From the sequence record EU863408: a DNA stretch of 64,000 nt; one strand, 5' to 3'. Of this stretch, positions 3,405 through 40,949 are shown one piece after another; the stretch's first letter is position 1; every line of letters starts with the position of its first letter. The position numbers and the translations under genes were made by a program. This stretch comes from Escherichia phage JSE. The notes under the pieces are model-generated. The model did not search any database and was not told the DNA's origin. It saw only the letters and a program-made list of their open reading frames with translations.

Positions 3405-3440
3405 TTTGTATACTGTATTTATTGAGTGAGGCTATTCGCT

Positions 3441-4943
3441 ATGCAAGATATTAAAATTCACTTTCTGAACTATTCCCATGTTCAAATTGAATGTAGCGAT
3501 TCAATTTTATTAGAAATGCGAGATTATTTTAGTTTTGAAGTCGAGGGAGCGCGGTTTCAAAAACGAGTAAAATACGGAGGCTGGGATGGGCGTATTCGTC
3601 TTTTAGATTACAACGGAAAGCTGCCAATCGGCCTAACTAAAACCGTGGGAATCTTCGCTAAAAATATGGGCTATAGTGTATGGGTAGATCCTCGCTTATT
3701 CGAAAAAGAACAAGTTACAGAAGAAGAAATTACAAAATGGTGTAATGCCTTAGAATTATATTCCGGTGCTAACAGGATCACCCCGCATTGGTATCAATCA
3801 AAGGCTGTCTTTGAAGGTATCCATCATAAACGCCGTATGTTAGTTTTGCCTACGTCCGCTGGTAAATCTGCGATTGCTTGTATGTTGTCTCGCTGGTACT
3901 TAGAGAACTACGAAGGGAAAGTGCTGATCATCGTTCCTACCACGTCGCTAGTGCTGCAAATGCGTGATGACTTTGTTGATTATCGCCAGTTTCCTTATGA
4001 AGCAATTCATACTATCATGAGCGGTACTAGTAAACACGTAGGTGATCGCCTGATCGTTGTTAGTACGTGGCAATCTGCATGTAAACAACCTCGTGAGTGG
4101 TTCCAGCAATTTGGGATGGTTATTGTTGACGAATGTCACAAAGCCACTGCTAAAAACCTGCTAAACATCGTTACTGATATGGATCATTGCCAGTTTAAGA
4201 TCGGCATGACTGGTTCCCCTCGTGACGGGAAAGCTAACATGATGCAGTATGTCGGGCTTTTCGGTGATATTTCTAAGATCGTGAGTATTGACCGCCTGAT
4301 GGAAGAAGGGCAGGTGACAAAACTGAAAATTAACTGTCTTTTCCTTCGTTATACCGATGAGGAATGTAGCGCGGTTAAGGGGCGAGAATATGCGGAAGAG
4401 ATCAAGTATATTACATCTAACCCACGACGAAATAAGTTTGCTTGTAATTTGGCGCTAAAACTCGCTAAGAAGGGCGAAAACGTATTCCTGATGTTCCGCA
4501 ACACTAAGCACGGAAAACTTATGTATGACGCGTTACAGAAGGTACACGACAAGGTTTATTATATTGACGGTGGAGTTAAGACAGAAGAACGAGACGAGTT
4601 CAAAAAATTAGCGGAAGGGGAAACAGGGATCATTTGTGTTGCGTCTTATGGTGTATTCTCTACTGGTGTTTCAATTAAGAATTTGCATCATGTTATTTTC
4701 GGTCATCCAGTGAAGGAATCAACTATCGTTCGTCAGAGTATCGGTCGTGCATTGCGTAAACATGGTTCTAAGGATATTGCAACGGTCTGGGATCTTATCG
4801 ATCATTTGGCGGTTAAGACAAAGAGCAAGAATGCTAAGAAACAGTTTAGCCACCTTAATTATGCTCTTAAACATGCGCTTGAAAGAATAAAAATTTACAA
4901 CACCGATCGATTCGAATATGTCACGAAAACAATCGAGATCTAA
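3441..4943 (+). CDS. uvsW: UvsW DNA/RNA helicase
   Basis: Strong similarity to T4 UvsW along the whole length (DIKIHF.., GRIRLLDYN, LPTSAGKS, DECH, late YVGLFG and HLNY regions); ATG at 3441 with GAGTGAGG RBS (track ORF starts at GTG 3426). Confidence 0.9.
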   Translation: MQDIKIHFLNYSHVQIECSDSILLEMRDYFSFEVEGARFQKRVKYGGWDGRIRLLDYNGKLPIGLTKTVGIFAKNMGYSVWVDPRLFEKEQVTEEEITKWCNALELYSGANRITPHWYQSKAVFEGIHHKRRMLVLPTSAGKSAIACMLSRWYLENYEGKVLIIVPTTSLVLQMRDDFVDYRQFPYEAIHTIMSGTSKHVGDRLIVVSTWQSACKQPREWFQQFGMVIVDECHKATAKNLLNIVTDMDHCQFKIGMTGSPRDGKANMMQYVGLFGDISKIVSIDRLMEEGQVTKLKINCLFLRYTDEECSAVKGREYAEEIKYITSNPRRNKFACNLALKLAKKGENVFLMFRNTKHGKLMYDALQKVHDKVYYIDGGVKTEERDEFKKLAEGETGIICVASYGVFSTGVSIKNLHHVIFGHPVKESTIVRQSIGRALRKHGSKDIATVWDLIDHLAVKTKSKNAKKQFSHLNYALKHALERIKIYNTDRFEYVTKTIEI

Positions 4944-4986: not shown

Positions 4987-5223
4987 ATGATTAGCTTTAA
5001 ACGTTTTTTGGTTGAGGCCGCTATTGACGGTTTCATGAGTAAGATTTATTCTTGTAATACTATCGAGGGATTAAATGAACTTGAGGCATATTATGAGAAG
5101 CGCAAGAAAGAAACAGAATTGAAACCTGCTGATGACATTTCGATCCGTGATGCTATCGCTGGACGCCGTAAGCAACTGGAAGCGGACAACGAGCCAGAAG
5201 AGGAGCCGGAAGAGGATTTTTAA
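4987..5223 (+). CDS. uvsW.1: UvsW.1-like small acidic protein
   Basis: 78 aa; resembles T4 UvsW.1 (FLxEA.IDxFM..I.SC.T.EGL.ELEAYY...ETELK). Confidence 0.7.
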   Translation: MISFKRFLVEAAIDGFMSKIYSCNTIEGLNELEAYYEKRKKETELKPADDISIRDAIAGRRKQLEADNEPEEEPEEDF

Positions 5224-5939: not shown

Positions 5940-6338
5940 TCACTTTGCAAGTCTTATGCGTAGTTGTTCAAGATCATCTGGGTTATCTATTACTGAAAAG
6001 TAGATTGATACTATGATTGAGTTATCGTCGTACTGCGGAGTTACTTCTACTGTCAGGTTTCGGACCCGTGGTTCATAGTTTCGGATCGCCTCATTGATGT
6101 TTTTTGATAAGGTATCCACTGTCAGTGGGTTCATGTTCTCAAACAGTGATTTATTGAGATCGCATCCAAACAGTGGATCAAATGGACGAGATCCCTTGCG
6201 AGTAGTCACGATCAGTAGAATAGAATCTTTAACCGCTTTAATCCCTATGTTCTTTTTAACGTCGTTATTCCACGATCTGGATATATTGAGATCCAAATCA
6301 GTATACATCTGATTAATAGTTGCCATGTTATACCTCAA
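5940..6338 (-). CDS. 25: baseplate wedge subunit gp25
   Basis: 132 aa; TTRKGSRPFDP.FGCDL, RNYEPR, FSVIDNPDD match T4 gp25. Confidence 0.9.
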   Translation of the reverse strand: MRYNMATINQMYTDLDLNISRSWNNDVKKNIGIKAVKDSILLIVTTRKGSRPFDPLFGCDLNKSLFENMNPLTVDTLSKNINEAIRNYEPRVRNLTVEVTPQYDDNSIIVSIYFSVIDNPDDLEQLRIRLAK

Positions 6339-6964
6339 AGAATTTTAAGGAAACTGGATAGACCTGATAATGAATATACACCAGATTCCCCGCATTCGCA
6401 CTTGATCGGTACTGCCAGCGTGATTTGATTTCTTGTTAGCTCGTCGATCACTTCTTCCACTTTATCCGTGGTAAGCATATCCAGCACGCGGTCAAAGTCC
6501 TGTGCGTTCAGGTCGTCTATATTGAATTGCTGATCGCCGATCACGATATATTCGATACATGCAATTACCATCTGCATAATATCAACATCTTCTGTAAACT
6601 TAGGTTGACGAAACTTGATTTTTACTTGTCCTAAGTCCAGAATATACGGTTCAACTTCTGGTATCTGTGTGCGTGAAACATCAAGAGAGTATACTTTCTC
6701 TTTATTGCATACACCACACACCCAAGTAGCATCAATTTTCATCTTATTGAGGCTGTGACACCATAAGAGAAGAAAAATATATTCTGCTTCGCATTTCTCT
6801 AGCTCTAATGCATTGATCCCCGTACATTCATGTATGATCTCTATAACAACCTCTGACAGCTTGCCAGTCTCTTTTGCTGCTACCAGTTTTTGAAATTCGC
6901 CGAAGGTGAAAGCACGGGCGTGTATCAACTTTTCGCCTAATTGGATCTTGAAAAAGTATTGCAT
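6335..6964 (-). CDS. 26: baseplate hub subunit gp26
   Basis: 209 aa; position and size match T4 gp26; overlaps gp25 by 4 nt. Confidence 0.7.
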   Translation of the reverse strand: MQYFFKIQLGEKLIHARAFTFGEFQKLVAAKETGKLSEVVIEIIHECTGINALELEKCEAEYIFLLLWCHSLNKMKIDATWVCGVCNKEKVYSLDVSRTQIPEVEPYILDLGQVKIKFRQPKFTEDVDIMQMVIACIEYIVIGDQQFNIDDLNAQDFDRVLDMLTTDKVEEVIDELTRNQITLAVPIKCECGESGVYSLSGLSSFLKIL

Positions 6965-7034: not shown

Positions 7035-7805
7035 ATGAATATTATCCGAATAAAACTGCCGGAAGGTGTGCAGAGATTTAAACCATTCACGGTAAAAGAT
7101 TATAGAGATTTCCTTCTGGTGTCAACTGAAATTAAGATGAATCCAGAAGAAGAACAAACGATTCTGGATGAGCTATTAGAAGAAATATATCCAGAAGTAG
7201 ATCCGGCATTTCGTGAATATATTTTCCTGAATGTCTTTACTAGCTCAATTGGTAAAACAAAGATACCGCTTTGTTTTACTTGCCCGACTTGCAACAAAGA
7301 AAGAAAAATGTTGCTTAACTTACAGGTTGAAGCACTAAAACCAATCGTTCTAGAGGCCGCAGGGCTTAAAATAACTTTCCGGTATGTTAAACCATCAACC
7401 GACTATGCAAAAACGTTTCTGGATGCGATAGAGCGTGTATCTGATGGTATTAATGATTATCTATGGACTGAATTACCGGAAGAAGTTAGAGAACAGGTTA
7501 TCGATTCAATCTCATTTGCTGAATTTGAAGAAGTTGTTAAGCAGATGCACACAATCAAGATCGAACAAAAGATATCTTGTTGTGAAAGTCATGACCTGAA
7601 ATACATAGGTCTTCTTCCATTATTCAAATTGTTGTTGAATCCAGATGAGTTATTCATCTTTTATCGAATAAACCATCTATTGGCAAAATCAAATTATTCT
7701 ATCAGTGATCTTATGGATATGTTACCGATTGAGAGAAACATTGCACTGACACTGGTCGAGAAAGACGTAAAAGAGGCAAATAATGCAAAGAACGGGGTTT
7801 CCTAA
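7035..7805 (+). CDS. 51: baseplate hub assembly protein gp51
   Basis: 256 aa; synteny 26/51/27; Cys pairs CPTCNKE. Confidence 0.7.
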   Translation: MNIIRIKLPEGVQRFKPFTVKDYRDFLLVSTEIKMNPEEEQTILDELLEEIYPEVDPAFREYIFLNVFTSSIGKTKIPLCFTCPTCNKERKMLLNLQVEALKPIVLEAAGLKITFRYVKPSTDYAKTFLDAIERVSDGINDYLWTELPEEVREQVIDSISFAEFEEVVKQMHTIKIEQKISCCESHDLKYIGLLPLFKLLLNPDELFIFYRINHLLAKSNYSISDLMDMLPIERNIALTLVEKDVKEANNAKNGVS

Positions 7806-8893
7806 TGTCTCAATAAAACTTTATCAGGATTATGAGGCATTTCTAAATCATCGCTTTATAGAGTTGGGTGCTACCTTTGTTACAATGACTCTGCGTGATT
7901 CGATTCGTGGGGTGAATGAAGGATTGTTGCAATTCTATGATAATAAGGCGATGCATACAAAATTAAACGGGAGAGAGATCATTCAGATTTCGCTATCCAC
8001 TGCTAATACAGATGAAGTGTTTAACCGAATCTATGGGATCTCTCATAGTAATGTAACAATTGACCAAAAATCCGACAACATTTTAACATTCCAGTTAAAG
8101 AGCTATCACGAAACACTAAACCTTAAATTTTCTCGCTCATTGACAAATAACGCGGTTAATAACGTAACTAGCATGATTGATGCCATCTATAAGGAAGTTC
8201 CTTTATGGAAACCTACTATAAAGGGTGATAACGTTGTTATTCCTCGTTGTCCGTGGGTTAGTACCATAAATGACTATATGGATTTTGTTAGGGCATACGG
8301 GCAAAGCGTAGAAACCGAGTCTTTCGTGTATTGCTGGGAAGATTTTGATGGTATAACGATTGCTGGATACGATACAATATTAAAAAATGAGCCAATACCA
8401 GCTATAATCTGTGAGCCTAGACTCATGGGGCAATTTATTGATATGTCGCCTAATCTGATGGTTTTTAATTTTGAGTGGCAGACTAAGAGCAATGCTAAAG
8501 TTAAAAAATTCATTTAGCAATGTGACATACACCACTATTGATTTTGTTACTAAGCAGTATAATAAAATTATTGTTGGTAATGGGGATAATATTGCACACT
8601 TTGCTCATGGTGGCGCTTATGGCGATTTAACTTATAAGAATGCGTTTTTGGAAGGTTCTAAACTTGCCACAATAGAACAATATGATTCATATGCTACCGC
8701 CGTGTGTCACGGTAATTTTTCGTTGCGCCCCGGTATGGTTATTCGATTCTTTGATGAGAAGCAACAAGCACGCAATGATTTTATTGTTGACGAAGTGGTG
8801 CATGAAATTAGCCGAGAGCAATCATTAACTCACCTGTATATGATCGGTAACAGCGAAGAATTACAGGAAGTCAAATTTGAAGGTAAGATATAA
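7783..8893 (+). CDS. 27: baseplate hub subunit gp27, reading frame broken by an apparent 1-nt insertion in an A6 run (8503-8508)
   Basis: Two overlapping ORFs (7783-8517, 8471-8893) together align colinearly with T4 gp27 (MLQRPGYPN.., TKSN.., HLYM); junction at a homopolymer. Confidence 0.8.
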
Positions 8894-9411
8894 TGACAGA
8901 AACTAAACCTATGTTAAAATTTGTTGTTCCTGTAAAAAAATTAGAGATAAACGGGAAACATATTAAGATCCCAAAAATGGGGATTAAGCAACATCGATTA
9001 TTAAAAGATGTTCGTAGCTGTGATGAAACATTAAAGATTCTTCTTGATTCAATCTGTCCTGGGTTAAACGCAGCCGAGTCTGAGTTGGTTATGCTTAACC
9101 TTTGTGCGTTTAATGGTAAGTGTCTGGAAGAAAAAGATGGTCTTAAGTTGTCTGATGTATATATTTGTACAGAGACTGAATTTACTTTAAATGGTAAAGT
9201 CTTTAAATTTAAAAATCCAATGTATACTTCTGACCCCATTATCGATGACGCTGATTTCTTGAGTCATCATTATCACGATCCTAGCGTAGACTTCCATGAT
9301 TTCCCAGCTTTTATTATGGATTGGGCTACAGGATTAAGAAAAACTATTGCACTGGATACACCGGAAGGTACTATCTATGGTGGAATTAACATATTGGATC
9401 GCCTATCATGA
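8893..9411 (+). CDS. 28: baseplate hub distal subunit gp28
   Basis: 172 aa; synteny; start overlaps gp27 stop. Confidence 0.75.
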   Translation: MTETKPMLKFVVPVKKLEINGKHIKIPKMGIKQHRLLKDVRSCDETLKILLDSICPGLNAAESELVMLNLCAFNGKCLEEKDGLKLSDVYICTETEFTLNGKVFKFKNPMYTSDPIIDDADFLSHHYHDPSVDFHDFPAFIMDWATGLRKTIALDTPEGTIYGGINILDRLS

Positions 9412-19096: not shown

Positions 19097-19264
19097 TTAT
19101 TTGTTAATTTCTGGTGCGTTGCTAGGATAGTAACCTTCTTTAACTCCGAGATATTTCGCAACCATCCCTACAATCTTCTGTGCTACTACAATGTCAAATT
19201 TCAGATAATCTTCGCCGTGGGTTTCAATGATATATGCTTCACATGCTGCTTTAGTCTCGAACAT
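19097..19264 (-). CDS. small protein (55 aa), copy 1 of a duplicated gene
   Basis: MFETKAACEAYII..; about 85 percent nt identity to 22576-22743; not in the ORF track. Confidence 0.45.
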   Translation of the reverse strand: MFETKAACEAYIIETHGEDYLKFDIVVAQKIVGMVAKYLGVKEGYYPSNAPEINK

Positions 19265-20454: not shown

Positions 20455-20759
20455 TTTAGACAAATAATCATTCAGTGCAATCCGGTCGGCGTATGCTGGT
20501 GTTACGTCAATCGCAATCACTTTAACGCGTGCTTTCTTGCGACCTGGGTTTTCTCGTAACCAGTGCTCATGACCGTGAACATTTTATACTGCGATGCTTC
20601 TTCGAAAGTACGGATCGGACAAGGGTAATCAGCGTAAAGGATCTCTAGGTCTTCGGTGATGTAAAAATATACATCATAATTACTGTTCTCTAGTTTAAGC
20701 AGAGACTTTCGGAACATTGGGAGATTTTCGCGGGTAAATTCAAAGATATTATCTTTCAT
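20455..20759 (-). pseudogene. HxHW-family small protein, frame broken at a T4 homopolymer (about 20581-20584)
   Basis: N-terminal 80-aa ORF; family C-terminus VHGHEHW..VKVIAIDVTPAYADRIA continues in another frame. Confidence 0.35.
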
Positions 20760-22575: not shown

Positions 22576-22743
22576 TTATTTGTTAATTTCCGGTGCGTTG
22601 CTTGGATAGTAGCCTTCTTTAACACCCAGATATTTTGCAACCATTCCGGTGATCTTCTGTGCTACTACGATATCGAATTTCAGGTAGTCTTCACCGTGGT
22701 TTGCTACAATGTATGCTTCGCATTCTGCTTTAGTCTGGAACAT
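22576..22743 (-). CDS. small protein (55 aa), copy 2 of the duplicated gene
   Basis: MFQTKAECEAYIV..; start at the ATG with GGAGAATCAAA RBS rather than the longer track ORF. Confidence 0.45.
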   Translation of the reverse strand: MFQTKAECEAYIVANHGEDYLKFDIVVAQKITGMVAKYLGVKEGYYPSNAPEINK

Positions 22744-22811: not shown

Positions 22812-23106
22812 TTATAATGCTTTATATGCGTATTTCATAAATTTGTCTGCCACTTCATTGGCATGTTCAGATTCTACGCCTGATTCGAGAACAATAGCTA
22901 GGTCGGTTTCGTCATTCCCGCCGTACCAATGATTTGATGTTCGATTTTTTTCAATTGGAAATTGGTCACTTTTATCTGTGCGACAAAATACATCTAAATG
23001 CTCATCGATGTAAAAGATCCAATCTTCATAAAGAATAACGGGTATTAGCAAGATTTTTATTGCCTTCAACGAAAGGTTCGGCTACAAACAAATTAGTATG
23101 TTCCAT
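22812..23106 (-). pseudogene. HxHW-family small protein, frame broken at a T5 homopolymer (23054-23058)
   Basis: ATG at 23104-23106 with GAGGAAA RBS opens a 26-codon frame that joins the track ORF (SNHWYGG..AIVLESGV) only after a 1-nt correction. Confidence 0.3.
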
Positions 23107-23122
23107 AGTAATTTCCTCAAAA

Positions 23123-23314
23123 TTATACAGCTTCGTAAACTTCCCAATGTCCAACACCAGCACGCTTAACGAAAAGGTTTTCTTTGATGTTATTCATAAA
23201 CGTCTGGATGGATTTAATGCGGTTTGAAGGTTTCCATTCTTCGTTGGAATTGCGGCGATACATAATAACATTACCAGTTCGCTTATATTCAGCAACCATT
23301 TTAAGACAACACAT
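23123..23314 (-). CDS. hypothetical protein (63 aa), ends in GHW
   Basis: ORF; possible truncated family member. Confidence 0.35.
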   Translation of the reverse strand: MCCLKMVAEYKRTGNVIMYRRNSNEEWKPSNRIKSIQTFMNNIKENLFVKRAGVGHWEVYEAV

Positions 23315-30380: not shown

Positions 30381-30751
30381 TTAGTAGCCTCCTTTAATTC
30401 TTCGGTAAACTCCTTAAATGAATCATTAAGCTGTTTCTCTACCAACTTGGGTTTTTGTGCTACTACATAGCCTCGTGTAGCGTCTTTCATTGCTTTGTTT
30501 TGTTCTTCTGCAAACTTAGTTCTTATTCCGTACATCTCCTTTTGTAGTGAGTCTACGACCTTCATCTTTTCATCTGTCTTTTTCTTATACTCTGTAAATT
30601 CCTGATTTAATCGGTCCACCTCCTTTTTATTTTCCCACCACATATTGCCACCTACCCCCAGCAACACAGATATGATAACAATGTATATCAGCTTTGACAT
30701 ATTACCCCCAACGACAAAAGGCGGGGAACTAGCCCCGCTTATTATTACCAA
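30377..30751 (-). CDS. membrane protein (124 aa)
   Basis: N-terminal hydrophobic helix; coiled C-terminus. Confidence 0.45.
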   Translation of the reverse strand: MVIISGASSPPFVVGGNMSKLIYIVIISVLLGVGGNMWWENKKEVDRLNQEFTEYKKKTDEKMKVVDSLQKEMYGIRTKFAEEQNKAMKDATRGYVVAQKPKLVEKQLNDSFKEFTEELKEATK

Positions 30752-31863
30752 TCAATCTTATCAGCCGGAATCAGTTTCTTATAATTCCGTAGATAGTAAG
30801 TTTTCATTGAAGCCAGAATACGGTCATAATCAAGACCATCAAATGCAATCATCAGACACATGAAAATATATGATTGTGCATCACCATGTTTACGTGATTC
30901 GATAGTCGCATTGGATGCATATGTCTTTCTGTCTTCTCCCGCGTGTGCGTTATAAAATTCTGTTGCTGTCGTAAAGGCATTGCGAAGAATGGACCTGAAT
31001 GCTTCCTCGAATAGCTCAATTCGTTCCAGTGCTTCCGGTTCGCCTTCATATGCAGCACGCAAATCATCGGTTTCGCTTTCTACGACATAGTAGATCAGGT
31101 TATTAGGAAACATCGATGTGTTTTTAATGTTATGCACACCAATATACCATTCACTCTTCACCTTGAACATTTGACCGTCTTTAGTGCGTGCAACAATTCC
31201 TTCGATACCTTCTGCGGTCCGAACTTCATCAAGAATATTGCTAAAACGCGCTGAATCAACCTGTAACGCATTTACCAGATGAGGACGTAGGATTGCGTCA
31301 GCAAATAGCATTTGATGCGGTACGTACTCTCCTGTGACGTTATGGCGTACATTCAGAAGTGTTAGCGACGGTTCAGAATATTCTACAACAATTCGGTTGC
31401 TGGGTGCTGTATATTCAAAGTTGAAAGTATAATCAGACCCAATATCGGCGATCTTAGCGCGTAGATCCGCATACTTCTCTGAATACAGAAGACCGTTTGC
31501 TCTCTCTGCCTGGCTTGAGTACAAGGCCGCTTTAGACTTCAACTGAACATAGCCGTTATCAATGTATGTGCTTACTAGACTACCGTCCATTTTGTCCATG
31601 ACCATTTCCACATCTTCCGGCTTAAAGCGAGCGCGATCATTCTCACCCAAATTAAAAAACTTCTCCATAGGACGAGATGCAATGCGGACAGGTCGGTCTT
31701 TATCATCGATTTCAAACATGATCCCGCGACACTCTAACGCATCTGGTTTATTCCACATTTCCGGTTTGCTCAAGTACAGATAACTAAAAATGCGCATACG
31801 GGTTTGCATCGCCGTAATTTCATCTTTGTAATAGAACGTATCAGATCCGTCACATAGTGCCAT
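30745..31863 (-). CDS. rnlA: RNA ligase 1
   Basis: Nucleotidyltransferase KxDG motif (KMDGSLVSTY) and overall similarity to T4 Rnl1; start set at ATG 31861-31863 to avoid overlapping denA, uncertain. Confidence 0.8.
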   Translation of the reverse strand: MALCDGSDTFYYKDEITAMQTRMRIFSYLYLSKPEMWNKPDALECRGIMFEIDDKDRPVRIASRPMEKFFNLGENDRARFKPEDVEMVMDKMDGSLVSTYIDNGYVQLKSKAALYSSQAERANGLLYSEKYADLRAKIADIGSDYTFNFEYTAPSNRIVVEYSEPSLTLLNVRHNVTGEYVPHQMLFADAILRPHLVNALQVDSARFSNILDEVRTAEGIEGIVARTKDGQMFKVKSEWYIGVHNIKNTSMFPNNLIYYVVESETDDLRAAYEGEPEALERIELFEEAFRSILRNAFTTATEFYNAHAGEDRKTYASNATIESRKHGDAQSYIFMCLMIAFDGLDYDRILASMKTYYLRNYKKLIPADKIDW

Positions 31864-31880
31864 CAGATTTTTGAACAATG

Positions 31881-32312
31881 CTAAAACTTTTTTTGTTGTT
31901 TTCTTTTGTTGACATAATTTGTGTTCCATTCTGGTTTAAATTTGGTGATCAAAACAGGTTCTTCGATATCGGCAGTGCTTATAATATCTTTACCCGTTGG
32001 ATTCTCGATGTACAACTCAAAGCATTGGCGGTAATAGAATGTTACTGTCTTACCTTCCTCTAGCGCCTTATGAATATTCTTACTCTTGCGAGTATCCGCT
32101 GTTGGTGTTTGTCTGTTAATGCTCGTCCGGTAATAATTGATCCGCTTTCTGAGATTAACAGTCTGACCAATGTATACCAGTTCATCATCAACCACAATAG
32201 CGTAAAGAACATTTAAACGGTTTTTCTGAGGCGGTAGAATCACATCACCATCTTTACACTCTAAACATGAATATTTAACGAATCCATAGTTTTCTATTAG
32301 CTCATTAATCAT
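31881..32312 (-). CDS. denA: endonuclease II (GIY-YIG family)
   Basis: Close match to T4 EndoII (VLYAIVVDDELVYIGQT, NLRKRINYYRT). Confidence 0.8.
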   Translation of the reverse strand: MINELIENYGFVKYSCLECKDGDVILPPQKNRLNVLYAIVVDDELVYIGQTVNLRKRINYYRTSINRQTPTADTRKSKNIHKALEEGKTVTFYYRQCFELYIENPTGKDIISTADIEEPVLITKFKPEWNTNYVNKRKQQKKF

Positions 32313-33916: not shown

Positions 33917-35079
33917 AGATATTTCCCGAATCGGTTGTAGTCATCGTCTGTTAAATCGGTATTAACCTGAGACACCAGATACATAATCTCTACTTCCTGC
34001 GCTGCATTCTGCACTTCGTCAGAGTTTAACCACTTACGCATCCACGGTAAAGGATGACGACGAACACTAAACGGGCTTTTCAGTCCGGCAGCACGCATAC
34101 GGGAATCTGCCAGGTATTCTACATAGGTTTTCAGAATTTCCGGTGACAGGTTAGGAATTGCCCCCATTGCGAATAGGTGGTCTACCCATTCTTTTTCTTG
34201 CTCGACAACATCCAGAAAGATTTTCGTTGCTTCGCCTTCAAGTTCTTCCGCAATCTGTTTCCACTCATCACCATCAACCCCCGTTTGCCATTGACGAATA
34301 ATGTATTGTGTGCCTTTTAAGTGAAGTTGTTCATCACGCGCAATAAATTTCATGATCTTCGCGTTACCTTCCAGTAAACCACGTTCGGCAAAGCTGAAAG
34401 TACATGCAAAGGACACATAAAAACGAATTGCTTCCAGTGCGTTGACGCAGTGTGCACACAGATAAATCGAAGCCATCAGATCTCGTTTTGTATCTTCAAA
34501 AAATCTTCTTGCATCATCTAATGCTGTCTGGTCGTCTCGTTCTTCCCAATAGCGGAGATCTTCTTTTGCATTCTCATACTTACGAATCCAATAAAGAACA
34601 TCATCATAATATTTCCCGATAGATTCCGCTCGCTTCATGATAGCAGGGTTATCGATGATCTGGTCGAACTCACTAGCCGGATCAATGAAACAGTTACGCA
34701 TAATGTGTGTATAGCTTCGGCTATGAATCGTTTCGCTGAATGTCCATGTTTGCAACCATGTATCGAGAGTTGGATCAGATACAATTGGACCAAATGCTGC
34801 GGACGGTGCGCGACCTTGAATAGAATCAAGTAATGTCTGATACTTCAAGTTTTCAGTAAAGAAACGCTTTTCAACGTCACCCATATTAAGATATTGAATG
34901 CGGTCGGTTGCAAGTGAAATTTCTTCTGGACGCCAGAAAAATGACAGAGATTTTTCAATTAATTCTTCAAATACTTGATGACGCTGAATGTCATAACGAG
35001 CGATACCTAAACCGCTACCCAGAAACATCGGTTCATTCATAATATCAACGTGTTCACGATTAAATACCGTATTTCCCAT
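33913..35079 (-). CDS. nrdB: ribonucleotide reductase small subunit
   Basis: 388 aa; di-iron/tyrosyl radical signature region; uninterrupted (no intron). Confidence 0.9.
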   Translation of the reverse strand: MGNTVFNREHVDIMNEPMFLGSGLGIARYDIQRHQVFEELIEKSLSFFWRPEEISLATDRIQYLNMGDVEKRFFTENLKYQTLLDSIQGRAPSAAFGPIVSDPTLDTWLQTWTFSETIHSRSYTHIMRNCFIDPASEFDQIIDNPAIMKRAESIGKYYDDVLYWIRKYENAKEDLRYWEERDDQTALDDARRFFEDTKRDLMASIYLCAHCVNALEAIRFYVSFACTFSFAERGLLEGNAKIMKFIARDEQLHLKGTQYIIRQWQTGVDGDEWKQIAEELEGEATKIFLDVVEQEKEWVDHLFAMGAIPNLSPEILKTYVEYLADSRMRAAGLKSPFSVRRHPLPWMRKWLNSDEVQNAAQEVEIMYLVSQVNTDLTDDDYNRFGKYL

Positions 35080-35727
35080 TCACATATTCCTCATTTTACA
35101 GTTATCAAAGTGCCATCGTAGAGCATTGCCTTTATTGGTAATTTTACCGCAATGCGGACAAGGATCTGCCATTGTTGCTTCCTTTGTCCGTTGTGAAATC
35201 AGCTTTCTCATTTCCTCGCTATGTGGTATTCCTTTAGTTGGCGATGGTTTCCCAAACATAGGATTTTTACTTCCCATTCTAGCTTTTGAAATGTTTAACG
35301 CGTGCTCCTTTGTTTTTGGCTTACGCATTTTAGCTTTTGTCTCTTCTGATTTCAATACACCTTTCGAAGATTCGCTAATCTTTCTTCGCGTTTCTTCTTT
35401 CATCGGCTTGCCCTTTCTTTGTTCAGAGATAAGTACCCTAGCTTGTTCATATACCCTAGACGAAACAATATAATCTCTTTTATTGGTCTTCGCATTTTTT
35501 GCTAAACACATCATACCAAATGCTTGTGCCATAGGTCCACCATGAATTTTGGCCAGCAGATGATGAATCACGAAATGTTCTTTTGCTGTCAACTCAATCA
35601 GGTTATCAACTTCATCACCGCCACCCATAGATCGCGGTAAAATATGATGTGTTTCCTTATATCCTTCAACGGTTCCTCTGATCTTTGCTTTTTCTATGAT
35701 TGCGTCATGTAGTTTTTGTAAGTTCAT
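35080..35727 (-). CDS. HNH homing endonuclease (MobE-like position between nrdB and nrdA)
   Basis: HNH motif HHILPRS..NLIELTAKEH and NUMOD-like repeats; C-terminal CPHCG. Confidence 0.7.
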   Translation of the reverse strand: MNLQKLHDAIIEKAKIRGTVEGYKETHHILPRSMGGGDEVDNLIELTAKEHFVIHHLLAKIHGGPMAQAFGMMCLAKNAKTNKRDYIVSSRVYEQARVLISEQRKGKPMKEETRRKISESSKGVLKSEETKAKMRKPKTKEHALNISKARMGSKNPMFGKPSPTKGIPHSEEMRKLISQRTKEATMADPCPHCGKITNKGNALRWHFDNCKMRNM

Positions 35728-35796
35728 GAATTAATCCTCTTTTCTGTATACCATTATTTATCAGGTATCCAGAAGAAGGATTAATTCACCTCACTA

Positions 35797-40828: not shown

Positions 40829-40859
40829 AATATAATCCTCTCTTTGTTTCGATGTGTGT

Positions 40860-40887
40860 ATTATACATTACCACATAAGCATGTCAA
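40860..40887 (-). promoter_or_regulatory. sigma70-like early promoter
   Basis: TTGACA, about 16 nt, TATAAT. Confidence 0.45.
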
Positions 40888-40949
40888 CACCTTTTTCATA
40901 AATTTTTAGGCAATAAAAAAGCCTCCCCGAAGGAAGGCTTTAAAATTCA

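Follow-up and report, generated by a model that had tools for sequence, protein, structure and literature searches.

A single extra adenine, very probably a sequence error, splits baseplate hub gene 27 in the genome record of Escherichia phage JSE

The window analyzed here (the whole stretch of 64,000 nt taken from sequence record EU863408) comes from Escherichia phage JSE, a Krischvirus similar to RB49. The baseplate hub genes form the cluster 26 (on the minus strand), 51, 27, 28, and 29, the order of which is conserved, and JSE gene 27 sits in the hub cluster position. In the record, this gene is laid out over two overlapping open reading frames (ORFs). The features at the locus are as follows:

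7035..7805, plus strand: gene 51, the neighbour upstream (hub assembly protein); overlaps the start of gene 27 by 23 nt
7783..8517, plus strand: 5' piece of gene 27; 244 aa, ending ...TKSNAKVKKFI*; matches PF09097 (E 1.2e-55) and is identical to ACL78132.1/YP_002922255.1
8471..8893, plus strand: 3' piece of gene 27; 140 aa from a TTG, reading ...KLKNSFSNVTY...; matches PF09096 (E 1.4e-27)
8503..8508, plus strand: homopolymer of six A's (A6), A5 in every relative examined; the one extra base causes a +1 frame shift
8515..8517, plus strand: premature stop codon TAG that closes the 5' piece
8893..9411, plus strand: gene 28, the neighbour downstream (hub distal subunit); the start overlaps the gene 27 stop (TAATG, 8891-8895)

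At the junction of the two ORFs the plus strand reads gttAAAAAAttc, in which the six A's occupy positions 8503-8508. From the upstream ORF to the downstream one the frame changes by +1. The last three residues of the 244-aa ORF (KFI) are an out-of-frame read-through past the extra A, and genuine gp27 homology in the 3' piece begins at about position 8504 (KNSFSNVTY...). The frame of the premature TAG meets a second stop, TGA, eight codons later (8539-8541), and contains 20 stops downstream. The 3' piece ends at the TAA of 8891-8893, which overlaps the ATG of gp28 (8893-8895). Since the start of gene 28 overlaps the stop of gene 27, translation of gene 28 is probably coupled to that of full-length gene 27; in that case gp28 expression would also suffer from the premature stop, were it real, 376 nt upstream. 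The split is already present in GenBank and RefSeq as two separate 'gp27 baseplate hub' coding sequences, ACL78132.1 and ACL78133.1; the latter comprises 133 aa and starts at the ATG of position 8492. The 244-aa product was found on one contig only, i.e. the JSE record itself (166,418 bp).

Two other gene arrangements in this part of the window deserve mention in their own right. The products gp26 (6335-6964, minus strand) and gp51 (7035-7805, plus strand) are divergently transcribed, diverged paralogues that share about 25% identity over some 190-205 aa, and both match PF12322 (T4_baseplate). Further upstream, the helicase gene uvsW (3426-4943, plus strand) and the small uvsW.1 (4987-5223, plus strand) are separate ORFs with a 43-nt gap between them. 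The corresponding split in T4 was later ascribed to a sequence error; the arrangement of 500 plus 78 aa is kept in every Krischvirus contig examined, which suggests that here the split of uvsW is real.

Domain searches identify the two gene 27 pieces as parts of the same protein. PF09097 (Phage-tail_1) is found in the 5' ORF, with residues 2-195 against positions 1-195 of the 196 of the profile (E 1.2e-55). PF09096 (Phage-tail_2), on the other hand, is divided, with profile positions 2-41 in the 5' ORF and positions 44-164 in the 3' ORF (E 1.4e-27), and it becomes contiguous in one polypeptide only once a single A is removed. As the pieces match successive parts of the gp27 Pfam profiles, they are colinear halves of one gp27 gene, far beyond what chance would give. 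Deleting one A yields an ORF of 1110 nt and 369 aa, the same length as RB49 gp27, and the segment of the repaired protein that spans the junction is ...QTKSNAKVKNSF.... Residues 1-363 of this protein align in a single stretch with residues 4-367 of T4 gp27 (1k28_D; E 1.6e-98), and the match to the hub subunit 9f4a_BE is stronger still (E 4.6e-110). Residues 15-134 of the downstream ORF by themselves align with T4 gp27 248-367, with FSNVTYTTIDF... placed opposite MKNATIYAHSF.... A preliminary description of this DNA had placed gp27 in two overlapping frames at 7783-8517 and 8471-8893, colinear with T4 gp27 over the junction, and had proposed that dropping one A from the A6 run at 8503-8508 would restore a single 369-aa ORF; the ORF list and the Pfam matches bear out its coordinates exactly, the alignment of the downstream ORF with residues 248-367 agrees with the colinearity, and the repair works as proposed.

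The run of six A's is peculiar to JSE. Across 8440-8570, each of the 53 Krischvirus genomes in the phage collection lacks one base relative to JSE, and over the wider interval 7700-9000 the same is true for 40 of 40 records among the matches listed. Direct alignment with RB49, G2248, and ELT4 places a single gap inside the A run, and all three have gene 27 annotated as one gene of 1110 nt. A related-locus search of IMG/VR returned three contigs: two with the same flanks are A5 according to a gapped pattern built from the window and both differ from JSE, while the third is only 86% identical. The gapped pattern found no match in metagenome contigs. Twenty contigs from ENA, Logan, and NCBI encode exactly the gp28 or gp51 of JSE and all carry a 369-aa gp27 ORF (the call in one of them begins at a later start and has 335 aa); 18 of these 20 showed A5 on direct reading, the pattern not matching contigs L027 and L028. 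Taken over all related gp27 stretches with sequence read directly (29 stretches, 31 loci), A5 and an intact 369-aa gene were found in each. An exact match to the A6 allele was absent from the viral, metagenome, and genome contig collections.

The repaired protein is found elsewhere: the 369-aa sequence (P0016) is present residue for residue on seven independent Logan/ENA contigs, so an intact form of JSE's own gp27 haplotype exists in nature. The exact repaired gp27 is encoded by none of the 20 contigs with exact gp28 or gp51, those with exact gp51 being 97-98.6% identical to the window, and a search among contigs for the exact gp29 of JSE found none. The 3' part of JSE gene 27 is without decay. 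Two synonymous and two non-synonymous codons set it apart from the consensus of 27 distinct relatives, and the residues concerned in the latter (I263 and D281) are also present in KFS-EC.

This distribution bears on whether the two frames could be joined by an evolved device, that is, a programmed +1 ribosomal frameshift or transcriptional slippage that sets the dosage of gp27 or yields a 244-aa product next to the full-length one. The frames do overlap at a homopolymer where tRNA-Lys can re-pair perfectly, yet programmed sites are conserved in related genomes, and here all relatives found have A5 and are in frame. Furthermore, the flanks are otherwise the same as in these in-frame relatives, so that nothing has evolved around the site. 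Nor were stimulatory elements present: the window sequence holds no GGAGG or other Shine-Dalgarno-like stimulator upstream of the A6 run, the RNA downstream of it is no more stable in its fold than shuffled sequence (z = -0.74), and an Rfam scan at the site gave no match near the gathering score. Neither conservation of the site nor a stimulatory element, by which a programmed ribosomal frameshift is recognized, was thus found. Programmed transcriptional slippage takes place on long A or T runs, typically of 8-9 or more, that are conserved in relatives; the run has a length of six in JSE and five in its relatives. We consider the probability of a programmed event to be close to negligible, in line with the preliminary description, which had ranked it below an error in sequencing or assembly. 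Hence a candidate recoding site can be removed, and the RB49 group gives no support for frameshifting in gene 27.

A different matter is whether the extra A was real in the sequenced stock, as a spontaneous +1 homopolymer mutation that left enough full-length gp27 to be made through unprogrammed leakiness. A +1 slip of tRNA-Lys from AAA (8503-8505) to AAA (8504-8506) would restore the exact wild-type ...VKNSFS..., and RNA polymerase dropping one A on A6 would restore the exact wild-type protein as well; the tryptic peptide NSFSNVTYTTIDFVTK by itself does not discriminate between the models. The need for gp27 is modest, with three copies per virion according to the established T4 structure (1K28), and real frameshift mutations, like sequencing errors, are especially frequent in homopolymers. 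Against this, the A6 allele occurs in no other genome or contig found, and with an essential protein reduced roughly 100-fold, A5 revertants would be expected to outcompete the mutant, which would then hardly be the consensus of a lysate. The site is poorly suited to leakiness too: the A site holds no slow-to-decode or stop codon (the next codon in the 0 frame is AAA and the stop comes two codons on), the run of six is shorter than is usually needed for efficient transcriptional slippage, and the upstream Shine-Dalgarno-like element, significant downstream structure, and Rfam element are all missing here as well. Finally, the three other unique frame changes in the JSE record (described below) speak for a technical origin. 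We consider a genuine, leaky mutation unlikely, and that JSE with a real A6 survives by slippage, which would make it an example from nature of unprogrammed recoding keeping an essential structural gene in use, is a shade less likely again.

One could also suppose that gp27 of JSE is truly split into a 244-aa N-terminal and a 133-aa C-terminal fragment, the latter made by a restart at ATG 8492, and that both assemble non-covalently in the hub. This ATG lies inside the overlap and is where the 133-aa GenBank coding sequence starts (P0008), and the overlap geometry would in principle permit termination-reinitiation. However, upstream of this ATG there is a single purine-rich stretch, AAGAG (8485-8489), and the 2 nt that lie between the two are too few for normal Shine-Dalgarno spacing. 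In all relatives these nucleotides serve as ordinary codons within the gene, the break falls inside PF09096 (at positions 41-44 of the 173 of the profile), and no such split was seen among the 53 genomes and the 29 gp27 stretches read directly. We regard two true subunits as highly improbable. Rescue of the 5' frame by amber suppression was likewise considered and rejected. E. coli K802, the host of isolation, carries supE44, and a supE host could suppress the TAG at 8515; read-through nonetheless stays in the wrong frame and meets the TGA at 8539-8541, so it cannot rescue gp27.

Single-base length changes restricted to JSE are not confined to gene 27. Singleton indels of 1-2 nt were counted in a four-way alignment of JSE, RB49, Phi1, and Sf20 that covers about 47.5 kb, of which 94% is coding. 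RB49 has seven such indels, Phi1 nine, and Sf20 one; all 17 comparator singletons are intergenic and none lies inside a gene, as purifying selection predicts. JSE has seven intergenic singletons and three inside genes, all three in runs of 5 or more. A general excess of indels in JSE was considered and set aside, as its 10 singletons in total compare with 7 in RB49 and 9 in Phi1, which is not a clear excess. Only the location of JSE singletons inside genes is distinctive, not their total number. When RB49 proteins were searched against the window, a frame change was found in three genes only, namely gp27 and two small hypothetical ORFs. The changes other than that at 8503-8508 are:

20581..20584: run of four T's in JSE versus five in about 49 of 53 relatives; affects the ORFs 20517-20759 and about 20455-20583 on the minus strand
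23040..23042: GGG in JSE versus GG; affects the ORFs 22812-23069 and 23026-23163 on the minus strand; unique to JSE compared with 37 of 37 relatives
31888..31894, plus strand: run of seven T's in JSE versus six; 57 of 57 relatives are one base shorter

The first of these splits the JSE homologue of RB49 ORF197 (102 aa) into two frames, and the second splits the homologue of RB49 ORF206 (97 aa). The GGG at 23040 was not among the singletons counted from the four-way alignment, and the number of in-gene changes in JSE is thus three to four. The seven T's at 31888 shorten denA (31881-32312, minus strand) from 153 to 143 aa and give rnlA (30745-31929, minus strand) a different N-terminus and start; 43 of the 57 relatives are otherwise identical to JSE over 121 nt, and this change, too, is probably a homopolymer error of the record. 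Several unique single-base length changes in conserved genes, one of them essential and structural, are the mark that errors in base-calling or assembly leave; shotgun clones with frameshifts might have produced them as well. What they do not look like is evolution.

The viability of the phage points in the same direction. Genetics has established that T4 cannot assemble its hub without gene 27. JSE forms plaques, and its isolation host was E. coli K802 (PMC2993671, Table 1). As gp27 is essential and JSE propagates as a lytic phage, the lesion should be absent from the consensus of a viable lysate.

We conclude that the split of gp27 on paper very probably goes back to a miscalled homopolymer or a cloning error in the JSE record as deposited. 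In this explanation JSE gene 27 would be a normal, single 369-aa baseplate hub gene in which an A5 run was deposited as A6 at 8503-8508; the one spurious A would account for the paper split into pieces of 244 aa and 133 or 140 aa. The likeliest source would be a homopolymer-length miscall made when bases were called or the genome was assembled or, in the case of a shotgun library, a clone with a frameshift. The living phage would then make gp27 as one polypeptide, reading ...SNAKVKNSFSNVTY..., with no recoding. The extra base, its uniqueness, and the similar unique changes in the same record are direct observations; from these we infer by comparison that the phage DNA itself has A5. The indel at 8503-8508 lies in a homopolymer and in one record only, and the record has other unique changes inside genes of a kind absent from the comparators, as is characteristic of homopolymer miscalls. 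An error of sequencing or assembly had also been named as the likeliest cause in the preliminary description, and this assessment gains support from the singleton A, the absence of A6 elsewhere, the exact repaired protein on other contigs, the three further unique changes, and the lack of a frameshift stimulator.

The split of gp27 is, in other words, very probably a sequencing error and not a real feature, and this has some bearing on curation. The reference record NC_012740/EU863408 holds two partial gp27 proteins (YP_002922255.1 and YP_002922256.1) that propagate into UniRef and protein clusters. These two entries should probably be merged after resequencing, and the same holds for the three other single-base changes. 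The titles and abstracts of the ten papers found to mention 'phage JSE' do not have the gp27 split as a subject.

Apart from single bases, the window shows mosaic differences from RB49 at 35068-35795 and at a junction near 40835-40908. About 730 bp of the window are without an RB49 counterpart, and RB49 ORF231/232 have no match there. The RB49 endonuclease ORF240 (485 aa) is absent from the window; homing-endonuclease content is reported to differ between the two phages, with seven in JSE and two in RB49 (PMC2993671). An ORF of 55 aa occurs twice on the minus strand (19100-19264 and 22579-22743), the copies being about 3.3 kb apart and about 90% identical in amino acids; they are homologues of RB49 ORF191 and ORF205.

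Set beside known systems, JSE gene 27 resembles most closely the gp27 of its own group. The repaired JSE protein has the 369 aa of RB49 gp27 (NP_891748.1) and is 99% identical to it; it has both Pfam gp27 domains and aligns with T4 gp27 (PDB 1K28 chain D), and the gene order 26/51/27/28/29 is the same in RB49, other Krischvirus members, and T4. The sole difference from the Krischvirus gp27 system is the extra A at 8503-8508, which splits the ORF. Programmed +1 frameshifting of the E. coli prfB type and slippage as in Thermus dnaX and IS transposases likewise involve two overlapping frames across a slippery run. Compared with these systems, however, the JSE site is non-conserved, lacks an in-frame stop or rare codon and a Shine-Dalgarno-like stimulator, and has a run of only six. 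With the genes split by homopolymer errors in deposited phage genomes, by contrast, JSE has in common a singleton +1 change in a run of at least five within an essential, conserved gene, and its assignment to that group draws on comparative evidence.
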